A stretch of DNA of 64,000 nucleotides, from NCBI GenBank assembly GCA_943358095.1, contig CALRGT010000003.1, positions 6,169-70,168 of the forward strand, read 5' to 3'. Under the pieces are notes generated by a model. That model did no database searches and was not told the DNA's origin. It saw nothing but the letters and a program-made list of their open reading frames with translations. Of the stretch, positions 3,630 to 54,702 are shown piece by piece; within the stretch, counting starts at the first letter, position 1, and each line of letters begins with the position of its first letter. The DNA comes from an uncultured Candidatus Saccharimonas sp. GTDB lineage: Bacteria; Patescibacteriota; Saccharimonadia; Saccharimonadales; AQU-01. The position numbers and the translations under genes were made by a program.

Positions 3630-3706
3630 GCGGGTGTAGCTCAGTTGTTTAGAGCGCGTCCTTGCCAAGGACGAGGCCAAGGGTTAGAGTCCCTTTACCC
3701 GCACCA
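3630..3706 (+). tRNA. tRNA-Gly(GCC)
   Basis: Acceptor GCGGGTG/TACCCGC. Anticodon stem CGTCC/GGACG with loop TTGCCAA. Unusual D-loop AGTTGTTTA and T-loop TTAGAGT. Encoded ACCA. Confidence 0.9.
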
Positions 3707-3741: not shown

Positions 3742-3750
3742 GGTTTGAGA

Positions 3751-3843
3751 TTCTAACCCTTGGCCTCGTCAAAATCAAATAATAGGCCAAGTGTCTTCCT
3801 CGACCGCCTACGGTCGAGGCGTTAGAGTCCCTTTACCCCTAAC
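3751..3843 (+). repeat. tRNA-Gly-derived trailer (inverted + direct self-fragments)
   Basis: TTCTAACCCTTGGCCTCGTC (3751-3770) is the reverse complement of tRNA-Gly GACGAGGCCAAGGGTTAGAg (19/20). Then a direct AGGCCAAG, an inserted 8-bp hairpin CCTCGACC/GGTCGAGG, and GTTAGAGTCCCTTTACCC, 18/18 identical to the tRNA 3' part. Confidence 0.65.
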
Positions 3844-7493: not shown

Positions 7494-9104
7494 ATGCACG
7501 CAAAGAGTATAATAGGACACAGTTATATGGATCCGTCTACAAAAAAATCTGATATATTTATTTTGCTCCAAGAGCAGTTATTAAATGCGCGCGCGAACGA
7601 CCAGCTTATTCGCGCCGACAACACCAAAGGCAAGAAGATCACCGTGCCTAATACAGGCAAGGCTATATCGTCAGCCTACGAGCAGTTGCGCAATGCTGCC
7701 GAGTACGCAGAAGATCATTTAATTTTGCAGAGAGCGATTAGAAGATTTTTGAAGCGTAGTTTGTTTATCGGCAAGGTTGAGTTGGTTGATCTTGGTGAGG
7801 ATTTAATTATAGAACTCGTGCAAGCAGGTTATCTTAAGGAGACGGAGCTAGGCTCAAAAGTTGCCGGCTCTATTAGTCAGTTAGCAGCTAGCTACGAGGA
7901 TGTTTATCACCGGCTTCGGCAATCGCATGTTACTAAGGTACAGGCTCAAGATTGGGTGCTATCTATATTGTCGGTAGAGATTGAGTCGATCCTGAACCCT
8001 CAAAACCATCATTACGCACTATTATATGTTGCTCAGTATCATTTTATGGATATGCTGCCGCGCCGAAAACTTGTTGTTAATCAAACCGAAGATGATCAAT
8101 ACGAGATTTCATTATATGCGGCCGTACATCTTGCCTTGTTTAAGTCAGATATAGCAGTGGTTAGGCACGATATAATGCGCGTTTATCAGCAATCTCCAGA
8201 CGATTTGAAGGGTTTTATATCTATGAACCGACATATTGACGATTTGTATCTCGCCAAGCTAACTCATCGACTTAGGCGTAATGTCGGCAAGAACGGTGCT
8301 CCGTTTAGGATTCTTAAAAGTATGTGCGACGATTTCCCCAATACAGTAGACATGCTCAGTGATCGTCAGCAGTTTCTGCAGGCATACAGACGACAAATTG
8401 ATATCGAGTTCGAGAATGTACACAAAAGAGTGAACAAGGGAATTGTTAAGAGTATTTTCTTTATCCTTATTACAAAAGTTATTATCGGTGTTGGCATTGA
8501 GGTTCCCTATGATCTTGTAACTACTGGCGCAGTAGCTGGCGTTCCGTTGCTGGTGAATCTTGCCACGCCTCCACTTTATATGGCAAGTCTAAAGTTTAGT
8601 CTTAAATCGCCACAATCACTTAGCAAGCAGACTCTCATAGAATATATAAACACTATGATTTACACTGACGACAAGCCGCCTCTATTGATGGTTAGGCCGG
8701 TGTCTAGTAGTCGATATATGGTTAATTGGGTGTATTCTATTTTGTTCTTTGTGCCGTTCGCTTTGCTTGTTTATATTCTAAAATTGCTAGATTTTAATAT
8801 TCCACAGATGATCATATTCTTTACATTCTTATCTACTGCCAGCTTCCTAGGTTTCCGACTGAGCAGTAAGATTCGTGAAGTTGAATTCGGCGATCGTCAG
8901 TCATCCGGTTTTATGACGTCATTAAGAGATTTTTTCTATCTGCCGTTTATAGTTTTTGGGCAATGGATATCTGGTAAGTATTCTAAGATTAATTTAGTAA
9001 GTAATGTGCTGGATATTGTTATAGAGTTGCCGTTAAAGACAATACTTAAATTAGCGCGTCAGTGGGTTACTTTCCTAGATCAAAAACAAGAAGAAATATA
9101 CTAG
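7494..9104 (+). CDS. hypothetical membrane protein (soluble N-terminal ~320 aa, C-terminal multi-TM region)
   Basis: 536-aa ORF with 4-6 hydrophobic helices in the C-terminal third. No family confidently recognised. Confidence 0.6.
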   Translation: MHAKSIIGHSYMDPSTKKSDIFILLQEQLLNARANDQLIRADNTKGKKITVPNTGKAISSAYEQLRNAAEYAEDHLILQRAIRRFLKRSLFIGKVELVDLGEDLIIELVQAGYLKETELGSKVAGSISQLAASYEDVYHRLRQSHVTKVQAQDWVLSILSVEIESILNPQNHHYALLYVAQYHFMDMLPRRKLVVNQTEDDQYEISLYAAVHLALFKSDIAVVRHDIMRVYQQSPDDLKGFISMNRHIDDLYLAKLTHRLRRNVGKNGAPFRILKSMCDDFPNTVDMLSDRQQFLQAYRRQIDIEFENVHKRVNKGIVKSIFFILITKVIIGVGIEVPYDLVTTGAVAGVPLLVNLATPPLYMASLKFSLKSPQSLSKQTLIEYINTMIYTDDKPPLLMVRPVSSSRYMVNWVYSILFFVPFALLVYILKLLDFNIPQMIIFFTFLSTASFLGFRLSSKIREVEFGDRQSSGFMTSLRDFFYLPFIVFGQWISGKYSKINLVSNVLDIVIELPLKTILKLARQWVTFLDQKQEEIY

Positions 9105-9165
9105 ATTACTGATAGGTCACTTATTCCACTCCGCAACTCATTGTGTTGTTAGCCTATCTATTAAT

Positions 9166-25088: not shown

Positions 25089-25790
25089 ATGCAAGATTTT
25101 TCGACTTATAAGCAGTTCGCAACAGATAAACTAGCAGTAGAATTTAACGATTTAGGCATTCTAGTGACAGCATTTACTCATCGTTCGTACGTAAACGAAC
25201 ACCGTAAGACTGTCCAGACTCATAACGAGCGTCTCGAGTTTTTGGGTGATGCCGTATTAGAGCTAGTCGTAACCGAGTATTTATATGGTAGTTTTGATGA
25301 TCCAGAGGGTGTGCTTACAAACTGGCGCAGTGCACTTGTAAGAACAGAAAGTATTAGTGCAGCTGCTACTCGTCAAGAGTTAGAGCCGCTGCTTCGTCTA
25401 AGTCGTGGTGAGAAGCGTGGTACGGCTCGCGCTAGAGCTCAGATTCTAGCCAATTGTTACGAGGCTGTTATTGGTGCGTTGTATGTTGACCAAGGCTATG
25501 ATGCTGCTAAGAAATTTATTGAGAATAGTTTGCTTACTACTTTTAGTGAAATTCTAAAGACTGGTTCGTGGATGGATCCAAAATCACATTTACAAGAGTT
25601 AGTTCAGAGCCATGAAGGTCATACTCCTATCTATAGAGTGATTAGCGAGGAAGGTCCTGACCATGACAAGGTTTTTACTGTTGGTGTATTAGTTGATGGC
25701 GAGATTAAGGGGCAGGGGCAGGGGCCTAGTAAGCAGGCTGGGCAGCAGAAGGCGGCGGAGTCGGCATTAGAGGCTTATAAACAGGTTTAG
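25089..25790 (+). CDS. rnc: ribonuclease III
   Basis: RNase III signature NERLEFLGDAVL and a C-terminal dsRBD (GPDHDKVFTV...AEQQAAESAL-like). Confidence 0.95.
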   Translation: MQDFSTYKQFATDKLAVEFNDLGILVTAFTHRSYVNEHRKTVQTHNERLEFLGDAVLELVVTEYLYGSFDDPEGVLTNWRSALVRTESISAAATRQELEPLLRLSRGEKRGTARARAQILANCYEAVIGALYVDQGYDAAKKFIENSLLTTFSEILKTGSWMDPKSHLQELVQSHEGHTPIYRVISEEGPDHDKVFTVGVLVDGEIKGQGQGPSKQAGQQKAAESALEAYKQV

Positions 25791-25877
25791 GGTAGTCGAC
25801 ACGCATCTTTGGCACATTTTCGGCGAACTATTATTTGATGGAATCGTTTTTCCTAGTTCCCTAAAAGGGGCTATTTA

Positions 25878-26097
25878 GCCACTTTTGATTCGGCAAAAGT
25901 GGCGCAAAACCGAGGGGCGGTGGCCACAACTCGATATAGCTTCCTAACAAGGAGCACAACACAGCCTGCGGAACTAGCTGCTTCGCAGCGTCAGACAGTC
26001 CTCGGCAGGAAGTGTTGTTGTGCTCTTGTAGGAATCTATCTCGGGTTGCACCCAGGCCCCACATAAGCCCATGGATGCCCGCTGGAGGCGGGCTATT
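25878..26097 (+). ncRNA. candidate structured RNA / palindromic repeat element, copy 1 (unclassified)
   Basis: 10-bp hairpin GCCACTTTTG/CAAAAGTGGC, then a long imperfect rod helix. Ends in terminator GCCCGC-tggag-GCGGGC + TATT. Paralogous to complement(28400..28621) with paired substitutions. Confidence 0.45.
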
Positions 26098-26143
26098 GAT
26101 TGGTATATAGTTAGAGCAAATCAAGGTCTGCTATGATTAAATC

Positions 26144-26680
26144 ATGTCAGTAGATAAATCACGTAATTTTGAATTAGAAATAGATGAAAATCTAAAACTC
26201 CGTCAGTTAATTCCCGACGAAGCCAATTTAATATTTAGTATTGTGGATAGTGAAAGAGAGTATTTAGGTAAGTGGTTGCCGTGGGTCAAAACAACCCAAA
26301 CACCAGAAGATTCTAAAGATTTTATTGAAAGTATTATAGAAAAGCGACAAGAAGGCTCAGAATTTGGTTTTGGAATAATCGTCAATGACCAGCCAAAAGG
26401 CCATATAAGCTTAATGCATGTTAGTGATGGCAAAGGGCCAGAAATCGGTTATTGGATATCAAGCCAGGAATCAGGCAAGGGCATAACTAGTAAAGCGGCT
26501 AAAACGGTCACCGAATTTGGTTTTAAGACATTAGGTCTAGATAAAATAACAATTCGAGCCGACCACAGAAATATAGCTAGCAACAAAGTCGCCGAAAAGT
26601 TGGGCTATATCCTGACGGGTCAAGAGTATGCGGGCACGGAAACTGCAATGAATGTTTGGGAAAAGACTAAACCTATATAA
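26144..26680 (+). CDS. GNAT family N-acetyltransferase (RimJ/RimL-like)
   Basis: 178 aa; acetyl-CoA motif region GKGITSKAAKTVTEFGF and C-terminal N..A..VAEKLGY. Confidence 0.85.
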   Translation: MSVDKSRNFELEIDENLKLRQLIPDEANLIFSIVDSEREYLGKWLPWVKTTQTPEDSKDFIESIIEKRQEGSEFGFGIIVNDQPKGHISLMHVSDGKGPEIGYWISSQESGKGITSKAAKTVTEFGFKTLGLDKITIRADHRNIASNKVAEKLGYILTGQEYAGTETAMNVWEKTKPI

Positions 26681-26690
26681 GACCATGGAT

Positions 26691-26713
26691 GCCCGCTGGA
26701 GGCGGGCTATTTT
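26691..26713 (+). terminator. intrinsic terminator after GNAT gene (third copy of the repeat's terminator module)
   Basis: GCCCGC-tggag-GCGGGC + TATTTT. The ~35 nt AAGACCATGGATGCCCGCTGGAGGCGGGCTATT are shared with 26063-26097 and complement(28400-28436). Confidence 0.8.
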
Positions 26714-26730
26714 GATGAGTGAGGATGGGG

Positions 26731-27510
26731 TTAGTTTTTGGAGCTGAGTGTACCTAGGACTATTATCCAGGCCAATAACGATTTAGCGATTAGGCTGAGC
26801 CAAACATAGGCGCGCTCGCCGTATGCATAGTCCTTCCATTTGCCGATCTTTTTGTACTGTAACCACATGTTGACAGCAAAAGTATTGAACAGTAAGAACG
26901 TTAACAAAAAGCCGAGCTTGGCGTACCACGGTATAGAATCGGCTATATTGCTAGTACTTGCCCAGAAGTATATGCCACCGATTATCCAAGGTACGATGCC
27001 AGCAATAATACCTATATTAAACGGGAACCATGATGTTTTCTTGGTTAGTTGATTGTAACGTTCCATTTCTAGACCCCAGATGTTCATAAGGAAATTAAGA
27101 GTAAAAACAAAAACTACGCTCGGCAACTCGTTTAATCCACCCATCATAAGTAGGACGGTAATCATCAGTGATGAACTGATGGAGTATTCCAGCCAGCGCA
27201 TAGGGTTTATGCCTTTTTTGATATTGGCTTCATAGCGGCGATAGTACATTGGTGAGGCTACGAAAAGATGAAAAAAGGCTGCAACTAGCAGAAATAGTGG
27301 ACCAACAACTGCTATAGGTATATCAACAAGTATCTTGGTCGCAAAAGTGAAGTCACCATCAGGAGCCACATCAAAAAAGCGAGTAATAATAGGTATCTTG
27401 AGCGAATAGTTCAAAATTATGAGCATTATCGTCGCCTGCAAAAGATGCACGGAACCCATAATAATATTAAATCGTCGAAGTTTTTTGGTCTGGTTGTTTT
27501 TAAATATCAT
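26731..27510 (-). CDS. heliorhodopsin
   Basis: 7 TM. Recalled heliorhodopsin 48C12 motifs are all present: FNxxxGxVHLLQ, MRWLEYSISSSLMI, GIIAGIVPWI, GERAYVWLSLIAKSLLAW (Schiff-base Lys). Confidence 0.9.
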   Translation of the reverse strand: MIFKNNQTKKLRRFNIIMGSVHLLQATIMLIILNYSLKIPIITRFFDVAPDGDFTFATKILVDIPIAVVGPLFLLVAAFFHLFVASPMYYRRYEANIKKGINPMRWLEYSISSSLMITVLLMMGGLNELPSVVFVFTLNFLMNIWGLEMERYNQLTKKTSWFPFNIGIIAGIVPWIIGGIYFWASTSNIADSIPWYAKLGFLLTFLLFNTFAVNMWLQYKKIGKWKDYAYGERAYVWLSLIAKSLLAWIIVLGTLSSKN

Positions 27511-27518
27511 ATAAATAA

Positions 27519-27546
27519 ATTATAGCATAAGCACAATGCCGTCAAA
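27519..27546 (-). promoter_or_regulatory. sigma70-type promoter of heliorhodopsin, near-leaderless
   Basis: Minus strand has TTTGAC(G), a 16-nt spacer, then TATAAT. Only 8 nt lie between the -10 box and the ATG. Confidence 0.6.
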
Positions 27547-27554
27547 CCCTTCCT

Positions 27555-27580
27555 GCCACTTTTGCCGAATCAAAAGTGGC
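27555..27580. repeat. third copy of the 26-nt hairpin GCCACTTTTG-6 nt-CAAAAGTGGC
   Basis: Same hairpin as at 25878-25903 and 28596-28621. Here it sits immediately upstream of the heliorhodopsin -35 box. Confidence 0.8.
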
Positions 27581-27674
27581 ATAATCACGATAAGCTTATC
27601 AGGAAAAGGCGCTTGTCATATTAAGCAGAAGTATTCTAGCCTTTTGCCCGTAATGAATGCTCTATTATTTCTAA

Positions 27675-27959
27675 ATGAGCGATATTAACTTCTGCCCACA
27701 TTGCGGTCACGACTTAGCGATGTATCAAAATAACGATTACTCTACTGCAGACAACACAGAGGATGAAAATCTTTTAATAGCTGTAAAATGCGTAATAGAG
27801 GCCAATAAAGCGTCGACATCACTGCTTCAAAGAAAGATGAGGATCGGTTACGGTATGGCAGCGCGTTTGATAGAGACGATGGAAGAACGGGGCTATATAG
27901 GGCCTGCTATTGACTCTAAACCACGAGATGTACTAATAGATAGTATTGATCGAATGTAA
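27675..27959 (+). CDS. zinc-ribbon + stand-alone FtsK gamma (winged-helix) domain protein
   Basis: N-terminal CPHCGH. The C-terminal [32 protein letters not shown] matches the FtsK/SpoIIIE gamma domain. Confidence 0.8.
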
Positions 27960-27963
27960 TGGT

Positions 27964-28401
27964 ATGAATATTTACCTAGATATTGACGGAGTGATAGTCG
28001 CGAATGATAATAACGCAGCTAATTATGCTGCGGAGTTTATTGAGTACGTATTAAATAAGTTCCCAGACACAACCTACTGGCTGACTACTCATTGTCAAGG
28101 TGACGCAAGTCAACCGATTAAGGACATTGGTCATTTGTTTGATGCCAAAACCATTGATTATATGAAGATGATTAAACCGACAACTTGGTTAGACTCACCA
28201 AATAAAACATCGGCTATAGATTTTAGCCAACCCTTTTTATGGTTTGACGACGACTGTTTTGACGGCGAGAGGCAAGAGTTAATCAAGAACAATGCACTAG
28301 ATAATTGGATAGAAGTTGACTTAAGTAAAGATCCAGACCAACTGCTAAAATTCATAACCAGTTTTCCGATTGCTTCTGAAATGGCACAAGAAGGCTCATA
28401 A
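27964..28401 (+). CDS. hypothetical protein, HAD-like N-terminal motif
   Basis: MNIYLDIDGVIV resembles HAD motif I (DxDGV). The rest is unrecognised. The ORF track's start at 27946 overlaps the upstream gene. Confidence 0.5.
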   Translation: MNIYLDIDGVIVANDNNAANYAAEFIEYVLNKFPDTTYWLTTHCQGDASQPIKDIGHLFDAKTIDYMKMIKPTTWLDSPNKTSAIDFSQPFLWFDDDCFDGERQELIKNNALDNWIEVDLSKDPDQLLKFITSFPIASEMAQEGS

Positions 28402-28621
28402 AAAATAGCCCGCCTCCAGCGGGCATCCATGGTCTTATGTGGGGCCTGGACGCGACCCGAAATAGATTCCTACAAAAAGACAACAAACTACTCCCCGAGG
28501 ACTGTTTGAAGTCCGATAGGACAAGTTCCGGAGGGCGTGTTGTCCTTTTTGTTAGGAAGCTATATCGAGTTGTGGCCACTGCCCCTCGGTTTTGCGCCAC
28601 TTTTGCCGAATCAAAAGTGGC
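28400..28621 (-). ncRNA. candidate structured RNA / palindromic repeat element, copy 2 (unclassified)
   Basis: The reverse complement aligns over its full length with 25878-26097: the first 73 nt have 1 difference, the last 72 nt about 5, and the central 75 nt are diverged but still fold. Minus-strand terminator + TTTTTT at 28400-28424. Confidence 0.45.
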
Positions 28622-28750
28622 ATAAATAAACTCCGCATCTGCGGAGTAAAAATAACTATATATAAGAAAAAAACGTTAGAAAATATCATAGACTGTAAGA
28701 AACGTGGCATAATCCGCAAAAAGCGCAATTGCGAGCCAGCAAGCCAGCAG

Positions 28751-28779
28751 TTGACTTATCTGTTATTCCCCTGTAAAAT
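28751..28779 (+). promoter_or_regulatory. sigma70-type promoter upstream of rpsP
   Basis: TTGACT, 17-nt spacer, TAAAAT, about 45 nt upstream of the rpsP ATG. Confidence 0.6.
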
Positions 28780-28825
28780 ATTCTTTATATATTCATAAAG
28801 TTAAGACCGGGAGTGATATTAATAA

Positions 28826-49402: not shown

Positions 49403-49494
49403 AAAATATAAAGAGTGTAGCGAGGGTTCTAGCCCAATGACCTACCGGCAACCTACTAATTAATAGCAAGGTGCTCCATCTAGTCCGTAGTTAT
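49403..49494 (+). promoter_or_regulatory. SAM-I-type riboswitch aptamer upstream of metK
   Basis: The conserved core is readable: AAGAG-tgtagc-GAGGG-ttct-AGCCC-aatGA-cctaCCGGCAACC-...-GGTGCT. The P4 region looks short. Confidence 0.75.
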
Positions 49495-49495
49495 T

Positions 49496-50668
49496 ATGGA
49501 AACGATATTTTGCCAAAACATATCCTTTCCATATATTCACGGGGAAGGATATTTTATTTCAAACTCTACAAAAACAACACTATTTACTAGTGAATCAGTT
49601 GCCGCAGGGCATCCAGACAAAATCTGTGACGCCATAAGTGATGCAATTCTTGACGCAGCCTTAGCGCAAGATCCAAAAACGAGAGCCGGTATTGAGGCGG
49701 TTGCTGGCGCAAATCAGATCAGCCTATTTGGTGAAATTACCACTACCGCCAAACTAGACTATGAGGCGATTGTTCGAGAAGTTATTAAATCTCAAGGTTA
49801 CATTGAGCCAAAGTGGGGCTTTTCTGAAGAGTCAAAGTTCACAAGTTATTTACATCAACAATCGCCAGAGATATCGCAGGGCGTTGACCAAGATGGGGCT
49901 GGCGATCAAGGAATGATGTTTGGTTATGCCTGTAACGAAACCCCAGAACTTATGCCGATGCCGATTACTTTGGCACATGCTTTAGCGCGTAGAATCGACG
50001 AAGTCCGTCAGAAAAAAATACTCGATTATATCCGACCCGACGGCAAGGCGCAGGTTACTGTCGTCTACGAAGATGGCATACCTACTGCTATAGCTAACGC
50101 CGTTATTGCAGTAGCACATTCCGAGCAAGTTAGCGCCGATCAAGTTCGTGCTGGAGTTATTGCTGAGATTATTACCCCAGTTTTAGCTAAATATGGCTTC
50201 ACAGTGAGCGACGAAAATATAACTGTAAATGGCACAGGCTTATGGCATATACCAGGTCCAGAATCAGACGCAGGATTAACTGGTAGAAAAATTGTAGTAG
50301 ATACATATGGTGGTTACGCTCGTGTTGGAGGAGGCGCCTTTAGCGGTAAAGATCCGAGCAAGGTGGACCGTTCTGGCGCTTATGCGGCACGATATATTGC
50401 TAAAAATATTGTTGCTGCCGGTCTAGCGGATAAATGTGAGGTTGGTCTGGCATATGTAATTGGTAAGCCGAATCCTTTAATGCAAACAATTGAAACATTT
50501 GGAACTAGTAAAGTTTCTGACAAAGAACTTTACGACTTCAAAGATAAATTGATAGATACTTCGGTACGAGGAATAGTCGAAAAATTGCAGCTACTTAGGC
50601 CGATTTATTCTGCGACAAGCGCATATGGACATTTTGGTAAGCCAGAATTGCCGTGGGAGCAGGGGTAG
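49496..50668 (+). CDS. metK: S-adenosylmethionine synthetase
   Basis: LFTSESVAAGHPDKICD, GAGDQGMMFGYA and GGGAFSGKDPSKVDRS motifs. The ORF-track ATG 49496 lies inside the riboswitch platform. The conserved N-terminus is better served by ATT at 49556 (see findings). Confidence 0.95.
   Translation: METIFCQNISFPYIHGEGYFISNSTKTTLFTSESVAAGHPDKICDAISDAILDAALAQDPKTRAGIEAVAGANQISLFGEITTTAKLDYEAIVREVIKSQGYIEPKWGFSEESKFTSYLHQQSPEISQGVDQDGAGDQGMMFGYACNETPELMPMPITLAHALARRIDEVRQKKILDYIRPDGKAQVTVVYEDGIPTAIANAVIAVAHSEQVSADQVRAGVIAEIITPVLAKYGFTVSDENITVNGTGLWHIPGPESDAGLTGRKIVVDTYGGYARVGGGAFSGKDPSKVDRSGAYAARYIAKNIVAAGLADKCEVGLAYVIGKPNPLMQTIETFGTSKVSDKELYDFKDKLIDTSVRGIVEKLQLLRPIYSATSAYGHFGKPELPWEQG
49520..49559 (+). 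terminator. riboswitch expression-platform hairpin (terminator/SD sequestrator)
   Basis: 11-bp stem ATATCCTTTCC / GGGAAGGATAT followed by TTTTATTT. The 3' arm contains the GGAAGGA Shine-Dalgarno. Confidence 0.7.
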
Positions 50669-52705: not shown

Positions 52706-54526
52706 ATGCAAGACCCAAACAAGATACGAAACATCGCAATTATTGCCCACGTTGACCATGGCAAAACAACATTAGTCGACGGACTATTAAAGCAGTCACA
52801 GACTTTCCGCGACAACCAAGCTGAAATGTCACAAGACTTGATTATGGATAGTGGCGACCAAGAACGCGAACGCGGAATCACCATTACGGCAAAAGTTACA
52901 GCTGTTCAGCACGGTGACTACCGCATTAATATTATCGACACACCTGGTCACGCCGACTTTAGTGGTGAGGTTGAGCGTATTTTGAATATGGCCGATGGTT
53001 GTCTTCTAATCGTAGATGCCCAAGAAGGCCCAATGCCTCAGACTAAGTTTGTGTTATCAAAAGCACTAGCTCAAGGCTTGAAGCCAATTGTAATTATCAA
53101 CAAAATCGACAAATTCGGTAGCCGTTTGGGTGAAGTAGAAGACGAACTAGCAGATTTGTTCCTAGAACTTGCCGTTCACGAAGATCAGTTACATTACCCA
53201 GTTTATTATGCAATTGGTCGTGCTGGTAAGGCTTGGCAGAATCCTCCAACAAACCCAGACGAAGACGCTAATCTTGATGTAATTTTCGACGCAATCATCA
53301 GCGACATTCCAGCTCCAGTAGTGGAAGCAGACAAGCCTTTCCAGATGCTTGTTACTGCATTGGCTTGGGATAACTTTAAGGGTAAATTTGCTGTTGGCCG
53401 AATATCTCGTGGTTCTATTAAAGCTGGTGAAGCTGTTACTCTTTGTCGCAAGGACGGAACATTATTAAAGTCAAAGGTTGACCTCGTATTCATGAGTCAT
53501 GGTGTTAGTCGTTTTGAAGTTCCTGGTGGTGTTGCTGGTGATATTGTCCAGTTGACAGGTATTGGTGAGGCTCAAATCGGTGAAACTCTAGCTGATGCTG
53601 TTAATCCTGAGGCTTTGCCGGTACTAGAGGTAGAAGCTCCAACCCTAAAAATCTATCTAGGTCCAAACACTAGTCCTTTTAAGGGCACAGAAGGTGAATT
53701 TACGACTAGTCGTCAGATTGGTGATCGCTTAAAGAAAGAACTTGAGATTAATGTTGGTCTACGTGTAGAAGAAGAGTCAATCGGCTTCTTGGTTTCTGGA
53801 CGTGGCGAACTTCACCTTAGCGTACTTATAGAAACTATGCGACGTGAAGGTTTTGAATTCGAAGTTGGTCGTCCACAAGTTGTTACCCACGAAGAAAAAG
53901 GTAAGACAATGGAGCCACTTGAAGAAGTTATCATCGAAATCCCTGCAGAGCATGTTGGTGCTGTCCAAATGGAACTTGGAACAAGACGAGCAGCATTGAA
54001 AGAGCAATTTACTAGCAATAAAGGTGTGACCAAGCTAGTTTACGAAATGCCTACCCGCACACTACTAGGTATGCGAAATATTCTTTTGACTAACACTAAG
54101 GGCACTATAATCATGAACACTTTGCCGCTTGGTTTCCAAGAGCTTGGGTCTAGTTTGCAACAGTTGCGAAACGGCGTCTTGATCGCTTTTGAAACAGGTG
54201 TTACTACTCCATACGCATTGCAGAACGTAGAAGAACGCGGTGTTTGTTTTATCGGGCCAGCAATTCGTGTTTATGCCGGTCAAATTATTGGACTTAACAC
54301 TCGTGGTGAAGATATGGAAATTAACGTTTGTCGCGCTAAGCAACTTACGAACATGCGAAGTAAGTCTAGTGACGGAACTGTACAGTTGACCCCTCCAATT
54401 AACTTCAGTCTTGAAGAGTGCTTAGATTTCCTAGAAAAAGATGAACTACTAGAAGTTACACCTAAGTCTCTTCGTTTACGCAAACGCGAACTTGATCCTA
54501 ACAAGCGAAAACGCGCTCCAAAGTAG
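52706..54526 (+). CDS. typA: translational GTPase TypA/BipA
   Basis: IRNIAIIAHVDHGKTTL, DTPGHADF and NKID G-motifs; 606 aa with the BipA C-terminal domain. Confidence 0.95.
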   Translation: MQDPNKIRNIAIIAHVDHGKTTLVDGLLKQSQTFRDNQAEMSQDLIMDSGDQERERGITITAKVTAVQHGDYRINIIDTPGHADFSGEVERILNMADGCLLIVDAQEGPMPQTKFVLSKALAQGLKPIVIINKIDKFGSRLGEVEDELADLFLELAVHEDQLHYPVYYAIGRAGKAWQNPPTNPDEDANLDVIFDAIISDIPAPVVEADKPFQMLVTALAWDNFKGKFAVGRISRGSIKAGEAVTLCRKDGTLLKSKVDLVFMSHGVSRFEVPGGVAGDIVQLTGIGEAQIGETLADAVNPEALPVLEVEAPTLKIYLGPNTSPFKGTEGEFTTSRQIGDRLKKELEINVGLRVEEESIGFLVSGRGELHLSVLIETMRREGFEFEVGRPQVVTHEEKGKTMEPLEEVIIEIPAEHVGAVQMELGTRRAALKEQFTSNKGVTKLVYEMPTRTLLGMRNILLTNTKGTIIMNTLPLGFQELGSSLQQLRNGVLIAFETGVTTPYALQNVEERGVCFIGPAIRVYAGQIIGLNTRGEDMEINVCRAKQLTNMRSKSSDGTVQLTPPINFSLEECLDFLEKDELLEVTPKSLRLRKRELDPNKRKRAPK

Positions 54527-54539
54527 ATAGTAGATAATT

Positions 54540-54690
54540 GATACATTTGTCATTGATACATTGATGCATTAATTTTGCATTTGGGCATTTAACATTGCAC
54601 ATTTATTTGGGCATTTGGCCTCCGTAGCTTCAATGACAAATGTGAAATGATAAATTAATGAGTCAATGACAAATGCATCAATGGTCAATT
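54540..54690. repeat. cluster of short direct and inverted repeats in convergent intergenic region
   Basis: CATTTGTCATTGA (54544-54556) is complementary to TCAATGACAAATG at 54630-54642 and 54663-54675. ATTTGGGCATTT is repeated at 54579-54590 and 54605-54616. Confidence 0.7.
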
Positions 54691-54702
54691 GTCTTCACGC
54701 CC

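Follow-up and report, generated by a model that had tools for sequence, protein, structure and literature searches.

Introduction

Repetitive extragenic palindromic (REP) sequences, REPINs and bacterial interspersed mosaic elements (BIMEs) are intergenic mosaics of hairpins whose modules are separable, occur in either orientation and lie at gene ends, where they bear on termination or transcript stability; they are also substrates of recombination and targets of IS110-family insertion sequences. A REP or REPIN is recognized as a palindrome of 20-40 nt that carries a conserved GTAG/CGTC tag, is present tens to hundreds of times in a genome and is linked to a gene for a REP-associated tyrosine transposase (RAYT). 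Correia elements (neisserial miniature insertion sequences, NEMIS) and the enterobacterial repetitive intergenic consensus (ERIC, or intergenic repeat unit, IRU) give rod-like transcripts of 100-250 nt; elements of this type supply terminators or promoters to neighbouring genes and are substrates of RNase III. Here we describe a non-coding element of about 240 nt that consists of four hairpins, in the order hp0, H, a rod of about 145 nt and T. It was found in a stretch of 64,000 nt from an uncultured Candidatus Saccharimonas sp. (assembly GCA_943358095.1, contig CALRGT010000003.1, positions 6,169 to 70,168), hereafter the window, where two inverted copies lie between rnc and rpsP.

In its behaviour the element is closest to the REP/BIME and Correia-type repeats, and its locus resembles a defence-island hotspot, that is, one chromosomal slot between conserved core genes that holds a different restriction or defence system according to the strain. 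There are, however, clear differences. The element is far longer than a REP, has no GTAG/CGTC tag at a fixed end and is accompanied by no RAYT that we could see; in Saccharimonas it occupies one locus, and its H module is near-identical across phyla, whereas REPs are lineage-specific. Correia elements end in inverted repeats of 26 bp, duplicate a TA target and number in the hundreds, and we saw none of these features here. Unlike known defence hotspots, the slot is also framed by copies of a structured repeat. We consider it probable that copy 2, the one next to rpsP, is one of two inverted elements that bracket a swappable block of accessory genes in the rnc-rpsP spacer and that belong to a wider, unannotated family.

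Two Inverted Copies of a Four-Hairpin Element

Copy 1 (25878-26097, plus strand) and copy 2 (28404-28621, minus strand) form an inverted repeat with arms of 98 nt at 93% identity and 83 nt at 90%. Aligned over 258 columns, they show a mean column identity of 89%; the mismatches fall mostly in the inner rod, and H, the outer rod and T are nearly identical. Each copy folds into a 5' hairpin, the rod and a terminator hairpin; the z-scores relative to shuffled sequences are -5.8 and -6.8. The exact 26-mer of H (GCCACTTTTGATTCGGCAAAAGTGGC) occurs at three sites in the 64 kb, 25878 (+), 27555 (-) and 28596 (-), and none would be expected from 100 shuffles; the 29-mer core of T (CCATGGATGCCCGCTGGAGGCGGGCTATT) is likewise found at three, 26069 (+), 26683 (+) and 28404 (-), again with none expected from shuffles. 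A relaxed search with the H core returned the same three sites only.

A first-pass annotation of this DNA had placed a rod-like element on the minus strand at 28400-28621, a further copy of its 26-nt hairpin at 27555-27580, upstream of the heliorhodopsin -35 box, and a lone terminator module at the end of a GNAT acetyltransferase gene. All of its coordinates proved to be correct: copy 2 lies at the position given, the hairpin is the exact third match to H, and the terminator module is a repeat of 42 nt at 95% identity (26672-26713). It had also reported a separate minus-sense hairpin near 28630-28650. The hairpin is indeed there (28630-28647, ACTCCGCAGATGCGGAGT with the tail TTATTTAT), but "separate" does not describe it well; because an hp0 precedes H in 97 of the 101 family members from outside Saccharimonas, it is best read as the hp0 of copy 2.

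The rnc-rpsP Block Is an Insertion with Changing Cargo

The order in this part of the window is nusB, a NUDIX gene, rnc (25089-25790), copy 1 (type E1), the GNAT gene, a lone T, the heliorhodopsin gene, a lone H, the gene of a zinc-ribbon and FtsK-gamma protein, an open reading frame (ORF) with a DxDGV motif, copy 2 (type E2, minus strand), rpsP, KhpA and trmD. On a contig of Candidatus Saccharimonas sp. RH-23may17-197, nusB, the NUDIX gene and rnc are 99-100% identical to those of the window. Six relatives were located through RNase III homologues at 78-84% identity. In five of them (L136, L137, L139, L140 and one further) the block is absent and rpsP begins about 80-125 nt after rnc. The block is an insertion, framed by the two inverted copies with H outward; no target-site duplication was found when it was compared with the empty rnc-rpsP spacer of L136.

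The sixth relative, L138, a Saccharimonadia contig of 1.05 Mb, has about 800 nt between rnc and rpsP, filled by two inverted structured elements without cargo. The plus-strand element, after rnc, is a structured non-coding region of about 420 nt (8712-9135, z = -7.3), which starts with hp0 and an H-like hairpin (GUUACUUUCUUG...CAAGCAAGUAAC, flank CAAAG) and continues into a branched body of about 300 nt that is unlike the rod. The minus-strand element, beside rpsP, is a homologue of the Saccharimonas element: its H (GAUACUUUUUG-AUUCGG-CAAAAAGUAUC) covaries, its linker reads CAAAAAACCG, and it has a rod as well as the apex GGAACUC-hairpin-CUCAAACAAUCC.

Variants of the island were compared in 13 related contigs, reached via an identical heliorhodopsin and six metagenome contigs with an exact H. 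At least seven architectures were found among contigs of the window's lineage. With E for a full element and optional or variable parts in brackets, their order is rnc - E(+) - (orf208 + E) - (GNAT + T) - heliorhodopsin - (variable defence cassette) - FtsK-gamma/ORF145 - E(-) - (orf306 + H) - rpsP. E(+) follows rnc in every variant, and the units orf208 + E and GNAT + T are optional. The slot between the heliorhodopsin promoter and the FtsK-gamma gene, which is empty in the window, takes one of four defence cassettes: a type I restriction-modification system with RadC; an SNF2 helicase with an N6/N4 methylase and a ResIII endonuclease (ResIII/RE_endonuc); an MmeI-like enzyme with a helicase and T5orf172; or SRA-HNH with a C5 methylase and a PLD-SNF2 helicase. 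It spans 2253-11833 in L128, 2899-9641 in L129 and 701-7437 in L131; L002 and L005 carry hsdM/S, hsdR and radC. This slot is a defence hotspot in a genome of the Candidate Phyla Radiation (CPR). L118 and L132 have an extra orf306 cassette and a lone H before rpsP, and further full or partial copies of the element occur at cassette borders.

Two of these contigs show additional repeats. On L132, a 43-nt sequence (GACCGAAATTAAGCAGATCAYAGGAGTCGCTTAGTATTTGCGC) is present on both sides of the orf306 cassette (1560-1625 and 2826-2870), adjoining the T of E(-) and the lone H. In L005 (7345-7480 and 8425-8700 of the reverse complement), a fragment of the start of ORF145 (ATGAATATCTATTTGGATATTGATGGGGTTTAG) precedes the FtsK-gamma gene and a second, truncated FtsK-gamma gene follows E(-), so the FtsK-gamma-ORF145-E unit has been tandemly duplicated.

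In the window's lineage the H and T modules are found at this locus only. The exact H lies in the rnc-rpsP island on six of six metagenome contigs and on both Saccharimonas genome contigs, and all T matches are in island loci. The idea that the modules are tied to the cassette, and are not REP-like terminators spread through the genome, is thus not refuted in this lineage; it does not hold for H in general, which heads a multi-copy family in other phyla. No match to the whole element was found in plasmid, phage, viral and E. coli collections.

Lone H and Lone T Are Recombination Joints

The flank on the heliorhodopsin side and the left arm of H (...GTCAAACCCTTCYT followed by GCCACTTTTG) are identical in every variant, and the sequence beyond differs: a full copy of the E3 type in L128, an internally deleted E3 in L002 and L130, the left arm alone in L129, and, in the window, the loop in flipped orientation, then the right arm and ATAATCACGATAAGCTTATC.... 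The loop of the lone H is flipped with respect to L002, L006 and L128, with the left flank unchanged. Window positions 27555-27780 match L005 at 220 of 225 positions, and in L005 the matching stretch is headed by the H that belongs to a complete minus-strand copy and extends into the second, truncated FtsK-gamma gene. It follows that the lone H is a joint, left by a deletion between the plus-oriented H by the heliorhodopsin promoter and a minus-oriented H upstream of FtsK-gamma; such a deletion is possible between oppositely oriented modules because the arms are palindromic.

The lone T is the right-hand one of two direct repeats of 40 nt (26058-26097 and 26672-26711, 93% identity) that bound the 614-bp GNAT cassette, and strains without GNAT have one hybrid T (for example L002) where the window has T-GNAT-T; the cassette was gained or lost between the two T repeats. 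Lone H and lone T are joints produced by recombination of two copies within H or within T. What is more, the rnc-proximal copy is of the E1 type in the window but 97-99% E2-type in L128-L130, showing that copies exchange sequence. We propose that the repeats serve mainly as portable homology for the swapping of cassettes.

These results change the role that can be given to the hairpin by the promoter, which had been taken for a possible operator of heliorhodopsin. In L002, L129 and L130 it is truncated or reduced to the left arm, and both the heliorhodopsin promoter and the protein are intact (97-100% identity), so H is not a required operator. Of the broader proposal that one element family supplies signals to at least three transcription units, the separable modules and the location of T at gene ends are borne out; purposeful reuse is not, the lone H being a deletion joint and the lone T a cassette repeat.

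Table 1. Features of the rnc-rpsP island in the window.
Feature	Position	Strand	Remarks
hp0 of copy 1	25859..25870	+	CCCTAAAAGGGG; weak; 7 nt 5' of H; by reading the sequence; position matches hp0 of 97 of 101 family members
H hairpin, copy 1	25878..25903	+	10-bp arms, loop AUUCGG; fold and exact match
Linker, copy 1	25904..25913	+	GCAAAACCGA; single-stranded; CAAAAC motif common to several phyla
Rod, copy 1	25914..26060	+	apex GGAACUAG-hairpin-CGUCAGACAGUCC at 25970-26001; fold, compensatory pairs, pattern search
T module, copy 1	26058..26103	+	hairpin 26077-26093, weak U tail; left 40-nt direct repeat of the GNAT cassette
GNAT acetyltransferase cassette gene	26144..26680	+	present or absent by strain
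Lone T module	26672..26713	+	hairpin 26691-26707; right direct repeat; ends GNAT and the convergent heliorhodopsin gene
Heliorhodopsin gene	26731..27510	-	constant cargo
Heliorhodopsin promoter-like site	27519..27545	-	TTGACG at 27540-27545, 15 nt, TGnTATAAT with -10 at 27519-27524; close to ATG; flank kept in all variants
Lone H hairpin	27555..27580	-	its end is 9 nt away from the -35 of heliorhodopsin; the constant left arm forms the boundary on the promoter side, loop and right side from a minus-strand copy
Palindrome in hp0 position of lone H	27589..27600	-	GATAAGCTTATC; same sequence after H of the minus-strand copy in L005
Small zinc-ribbon and FtsK-gamma protein	27675-27959	+	constant right-hand cargo
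145/151-aa DxDGV (HAD-like) ORF	to 28401	+	constant right-hand cargo
T module, copy 2	28398..28443	-	hairpin 28408-28424, tail UAUUUUUUAU; fold and terminator scan
Rod, copy 2	28441..28585	-	apex GGAACUUG-hairpin-CUUCAAACAGUCC; fold, compensatory pairs, pattern search
Linker, copy 2	28586..28595	-	GCAAAACCGA; alignment and fold
H hairpin, copy 2	28596..28621	-	exact match
hp0 of copy 2	28622..28647	-	hairpin 28630-28647 with tail; kept beside H in L118 and L132
rpsP promoter-like site	28751..28779	+	right edge of the inserted block relative to the empty site of L136

Compensatory Changes Keep the Fold

Ten distinct full copies from related Saccharimonas contigs fall into three rod types, E1, E2 and E3, of which E3 is almost wholly different in rod sequence. 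When these ten copies were analyzed with RNAalifold, 66 pairs were obtained, 13 of them with compensatory double changes and few broken. The compensatory changes among the three rod types keep the fold. The conserved parts of the rods are the ends (GGGGC.../...GCCCC) and the apex (GGAACU[AU]G-hairpin-UCA[GA]ACA[GA]UCC), and the tip hairpin is swapped wholesale.

Rfam covariance models were run at gathering and at permissive thresholds on the window, on nine further family loci and on the copy from Acinetobacter described below; none reached its gathering score at the element, and the other loci gave only noise or no match. The sole match with E <= 10 within 25700-28800 was OmrA-B over hp0 (E = 4.4), which is a chance match. 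A string in the E3 rod resembling signal recognition particle RNA (AGGAAGCAGCCAAG) was not supported by any covariance model.

The recurrent UNCG and CUUG loops suggest that structure matters in the RNA, and the UNCG loops and the covariation together argue for a constraint at the RNA level. Conversely, three observations speak against an essential RNA gene: no promoter is conserved, the sense strand shows no G-U bias, and the promoter-side copy has decayed freely.

T as a Putative Terminator and the Rod as a Putative RNase III Substrate

All three T copies have the pattern of an intrinsic terminator in the terminator scan, with 7 stem pairs (6 of them G-C) and a 3-nt loop. The tails are TATTTTTTAT in copy 2, TATTTTGATG in the lone T and TATTGATTGG, which is weaker, in copy 1. 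The T copies lie exactly at the ends of GNAT, the 145-aa ORF and heliorhodopsin, adjoining the stop codons of the first two, and in every full copy T is oriented so as to end a transcript running from H into the rod. The terminator of copy 2 had been described as abutting the stop codon of the plus-strand gene that ends at 28401, and the T hairpin at 28408-28424, with its U-rich tail, does adjoin it. Judged from these sequences, the T hairpins would act as intrinsic terminators and insulators at cassette ends, and the lone T, placed between convergent genes, may terminate in both directions.

The scan found no terminator-like site between rnc and E1, and the rnc operon therefore probably reads into copy 1. 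The rod would then be a double-stranded 3' untranslated region, and its near-perfect duplex could be a natural substrate of RNase III in the enzyme's own message.

The -10-like boxes of the heliorhodopsin gene (TGnTATAAT) and of the FtsK-gamma gene (TATTAT), at 27510-27545 and 27640-27677, stand about 6-8 nt from the ATG, which suggests that the two mRNAs may be leaderless or nearly so.

H Heads a Repeat Family in Several Phyla

H belongs to an unannotated repeat family that is present in several phyla, in Nitrospira, Xanthomonadales, Desulfuromonas, Kazan, Saccharimonadia and Acinetobacter. When genomes were scanned for the two H arms around a loop of any sequence, at least 120 stretches were obtained. 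Among the matches listed, most were from Nitrospira/Nitrospirales and Rhodanobacteraceae/Lysobacterales, and others were from Desulfuromonas, some Bacteroidota, candidate division Kazan and a spirochaete. The few matches in Flavobacteriia and Prevotella are plain terminators, not members.

The family is defined by an hp0 7-8 nt upstream of H, an H of the form YUUUUG-N6-CAAAAR with paired outer arms, a CAAAAC linker, a rod of 130-170 nt and the apex AACUNG-hairpin-UCARACA. The loop of H is UUUCGG in 80 of 101 distinct copies, and the variants UUACGG, UUCCGG and UCUUGG are also UNCG or CUUG tetraloops on the sense strand; the 3' flank is CAAAAC(C). A stable hp0, often UUCG-capped, lies at most 32 nt upstream of H in 97 of the 101, and in sense orientation the loops of hp0 and H are UUCG, UACG, UCCG or CUUG. 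The tip of the rod is CNAACUCG-hairpin-CUCARACA. The 8-bp apex stem covaries, with 59 double-change cells compared with 25 ± 5.5 in shuffles (0 of 500 as high), clearly above slid controls, and so do the H arms, which are CCUAC/GUAGG in Acinetobacter and GAUAC/GUAUC in L138. The Saccharimonas types E1 and E2 have the hp0, H, linker and rod of the family, and the apex was recovered by pattern search: AACTNG-N(8-38)-TCARACAR gave two matches in the 64 kb, both at rod tips, where 0.24 were expected.

Chromosomes of A. baumannii carry 1-3 copies, with the compensatory arm changes CCUAC.../...GUAGG and a UUCG-capped hp0; no copy was found in the E. coli collection. In an A. baumannii assembly filed as a phage record (L135, 2485-2640), the sequence downstream of corA contains an unannotated hp0 (GAACCUUCGGUUC), an H variant and CAAAACCAUUA, and the rod is A+U-rich with an internal direct repeat of CAAAACCATTA.

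In Nitrospira the copies are dispersed round the chromosomes, and a high, REP-like copy number was seen only in Nitrospira and Xanthomonadales. Modules are also found apart, and in mosaics, outside Saccharimonas. The orientation of copies relative to neighbouring genes is random, although gene calls are crude in the G+C-rich loci. Clustering and Pfam analysis of 148 neighbouring ORFs revealed no recurrent partner protein, the neighbours being unrelated housekeeping genes. In a Nitrospirales metagenome-assembled genome (L060, CAWDGE010000005.1, 3283-4500), one hp0-H-rod copy is followed, about 190 nt downstream and on the same strand, by an IS110-family transposase gene with a frameshift, which is surrounded by other short Nitrospira repeats (CTGCTGCTCAGGA...). 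The literature was searched for the hairpin sequence, for REP/RAYT elements of Nitrospira and for small RNAs of Acinetobacter, and nothing relevant came up; the only sequence match was an unrelated Thermus CRISPR repeat.

Alternative Explanations

Several observations weigh against a pair of inverted elements bracketing a swappable block and belonging to a wider family. The island has the same orientation in 13 of 13 variants, so crossover between the inverted copies cannot be frequent. The U tail of copy 1 is weak (UAUUGAUUGG), and the terminator and RNase III roles are predictions from sequence. A sense-strand excess of G-U pairs or of stability was looked for and not found; antisense was slightly favoured, and a palindrome acting at the DNA level fits this as well as an RNA does. 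The collections were scanned by exact match, which copies with a diverged H elsewhere in the genome would escape, and the count of 120 stretches is a lower bound. An apex covariance model built from non-Saccharimonas copies was not significant on E1/E2 or on L138; the membership of E1 and E2 in the family is suggested by H, the linker, the architecture and a 13-nt motif, which fall short of proof. The explanations that follow, and the probabilities we attach to them, are not mutually exclusive.

The strong conserved fold with its compensatory changes would be expected of a true small-RNA gene, the view of the first-pass annotation, in which the parts are reused purposely, H as a site of regulation or protein binding at the heliorhodopsin promoter and T as a dedicated terminator. 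The UUCG, UACG, UCCG and CUUG loops of H and hp0 in the sense strand, the placement of T at the end of an H-to-rod transcript in every full copy, the orthologous minus-strand copy beside rpsP in the diverged L138 and the left arm of H, kept 9 nt from the -35 in all variants, are in line with such a gene. However, no conserved promoter was detected upstream of hp0/H, either in Saccharimonas or in an anchored consensus from 78 Nitrospira-type copies; three different internal deletions are seen in the promoter-side copy with heliorhodopsin intact; and the lone H is demonstrably a deletion joint. Nor would one expect the element to be wholly absent from four of five relatives with readable DNA, or family copies to be without orientation bias towards their neighbours and without a sense-strand G-U bias. 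We consider a small-RNA gene unlikely. Another candidate is a selfish, non-autonomous element, a miniature inverted-repeat transposable element (MITE) or REP/REPIN-like DNA, with its transposase encoded elsewhere and with local insertions followed by decay. In its favour are the dispersed multiple copies in Nitrospira and Xanthomonadales, their random orientation beside unrelated housekeeping genes, the separate modules and mosaics, the IS110 pseudogene beside one copy, the patchy phylogenetic spread of a near-identical H, and a spacer that is occupied in two diverged Saccharimonadia lineages and empty in others. A MITE is defined by inverted repeats at the two ends of the unit, by duplication of its target site and by the existence of an autonomous insertion sequence related to it; here, the hp0-side and T-side ends are not inverted repeats, there is no duplication relative to the empty site of L136, and no transposase or RAYT recurs among the 148 neighbouring ORFs. 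A REP or REPIN fits poorly as well, with three H sites in 64 kb at one locus, no fixed tag and no Y1 transposase in the 25 commonest Pfam families of the 148 neighbours in other phyla. Every Saccharimonas copy found is at one locus, plasmid and viral collections gave no match, and the UNCG-type loops point to selection on RNA. This explanation we regard as rather unlikely, though with some weight.

H (perhaps also T) might instead be the core site of a site-specific recombination of cassettes, like attC or the Xer/pdif sites, possibly activated by the FtsK-gamma protein of the island. Cassettes are flanked by direct repeats of H in the window (FtsK-gamma/ORF145), in L118 and L132 (orf306) and, with a half-H, in L006 (orf208); direct T repeats bound GNAT. 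The 10-bp arms and 6-bp spacer of H have the geometry of a tyrosine-recombinase site, a stand-alone zinc-ribbon and FtsK-gamma protein is constant cargo, and the remaining cargo consists of defence-type and acetyltransferase genes. Integron cassettes are similar in that small promoter-less genes of such kinds are each bounded by an imperfect palindrome and vary in number; they stand in one orientation with intI and attI nearby, and their attC sites have the R boxes RYYYAAC/GTTRRRY. At this locus the genes called up to 10 kb to the left and right include no integrase or other recombinase; attI, an R-box consensus (no GTTRRRY at the module borders) and a fixed crossover point are likewise missing, and cargo lies in both orientations, heliorhodopsin being opposite to the rest. 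Co-oriented copies near toxin-antitoxin, Fic and restriction genes in Nitrospira were considered as a possible attC-like array; the copies are dispersed among mostly housekeeping genes, without R boxes and without arrays beside an integrase. The pdif sites of Acinetobacter plasmids and the Xer islands such as the gonococcal genetic island share with our locus inverted palindromic sites with a 6-bp spacer and an FtsK-gamma protein in the island. The dif site has 28 bp (11-6-11) with inner ATAA-N6-TTAT and recombines at the spacer, whereas H is 10-6-10 with the arms GCCACTTTTG/CAAAAGTGGC, lies inside a much larger structured unit and, compared by eye with the consensus sequences, matches neither dif nor the attC R boxes. 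The breakpoints vary, falling in the left arm (window, L129), the right arm (L002), the loop (L130), 9 nt past H (L118, L132) and inside T, and no inversion polymorphism was seen despite the inverted sites. Site-specific recombination at H therefore seems to us very improbable. Bridge RNAs of IS110 and omega RNAs of TnpB/IscB, which are encoded beside a recombinase or nuclease gene and on the same strand, were also considered; no such gene is near the window locus, and only 1 of about 110 family copies lies upstream of an IS110 pseudogene (L060), too few for IS110 to be the partner. A bolder proposal, which we rate as decidedly unlikely, is that hp0-H-rod is an undescribed class of structured elements over several phyla, whose UNCG hairpin and CAAAAC form a handle for a conserved protein that moves the elements or swaps the cassettes; the Saccharimonas island would then be a small platform, similar to an integron, that carries defence systems and a light sensor.

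Other Features of the Window

A SAM-I riboswitch (RF00162) is present at 49403-49511 on the plus strand, scoring 57.9 bits (threshold 44.4). The 3' half of tRNA-Gly(GCC) (3670-3691) has a 22-nt inverted copy at 95% identity 57 nt downstream (3749-3770); paired with this copy, the T arm and acceptor end would make a long hairpin. The 3' end and trailing sequence of tRNA-Val (1625-1651) are repeated at 89% identity 189 nt downstream (1814-1840), where no tRNA is called; this repeat may be a tRNA fragment or an att-like remnant of integration. An A+T-rich inverted repeat of 50 nt (54525-54574 and 54645-54694), with arms 70 nt apart and 74% complementary, contains repeated TGATACATT/CAATGA motifs.

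Biological Significance

The element is unusual in that its head hairpin is conserved almost base-for-base across phyla, and a non-coding sequence of 26-35 nt that is near-identical over such distances implies a shared partner or recent horizontal spread. For annotation, the lesson is that lone "regulatory hairpins" by promoters can be scars of recombination and not operators. As for the organism, the tiny genome of an episymbiont of the CPR keeps a swappable restriction and defence slot beside heliorhodopsin, framed by repeats, in a conserved ribosomal-gene neighbourhood.

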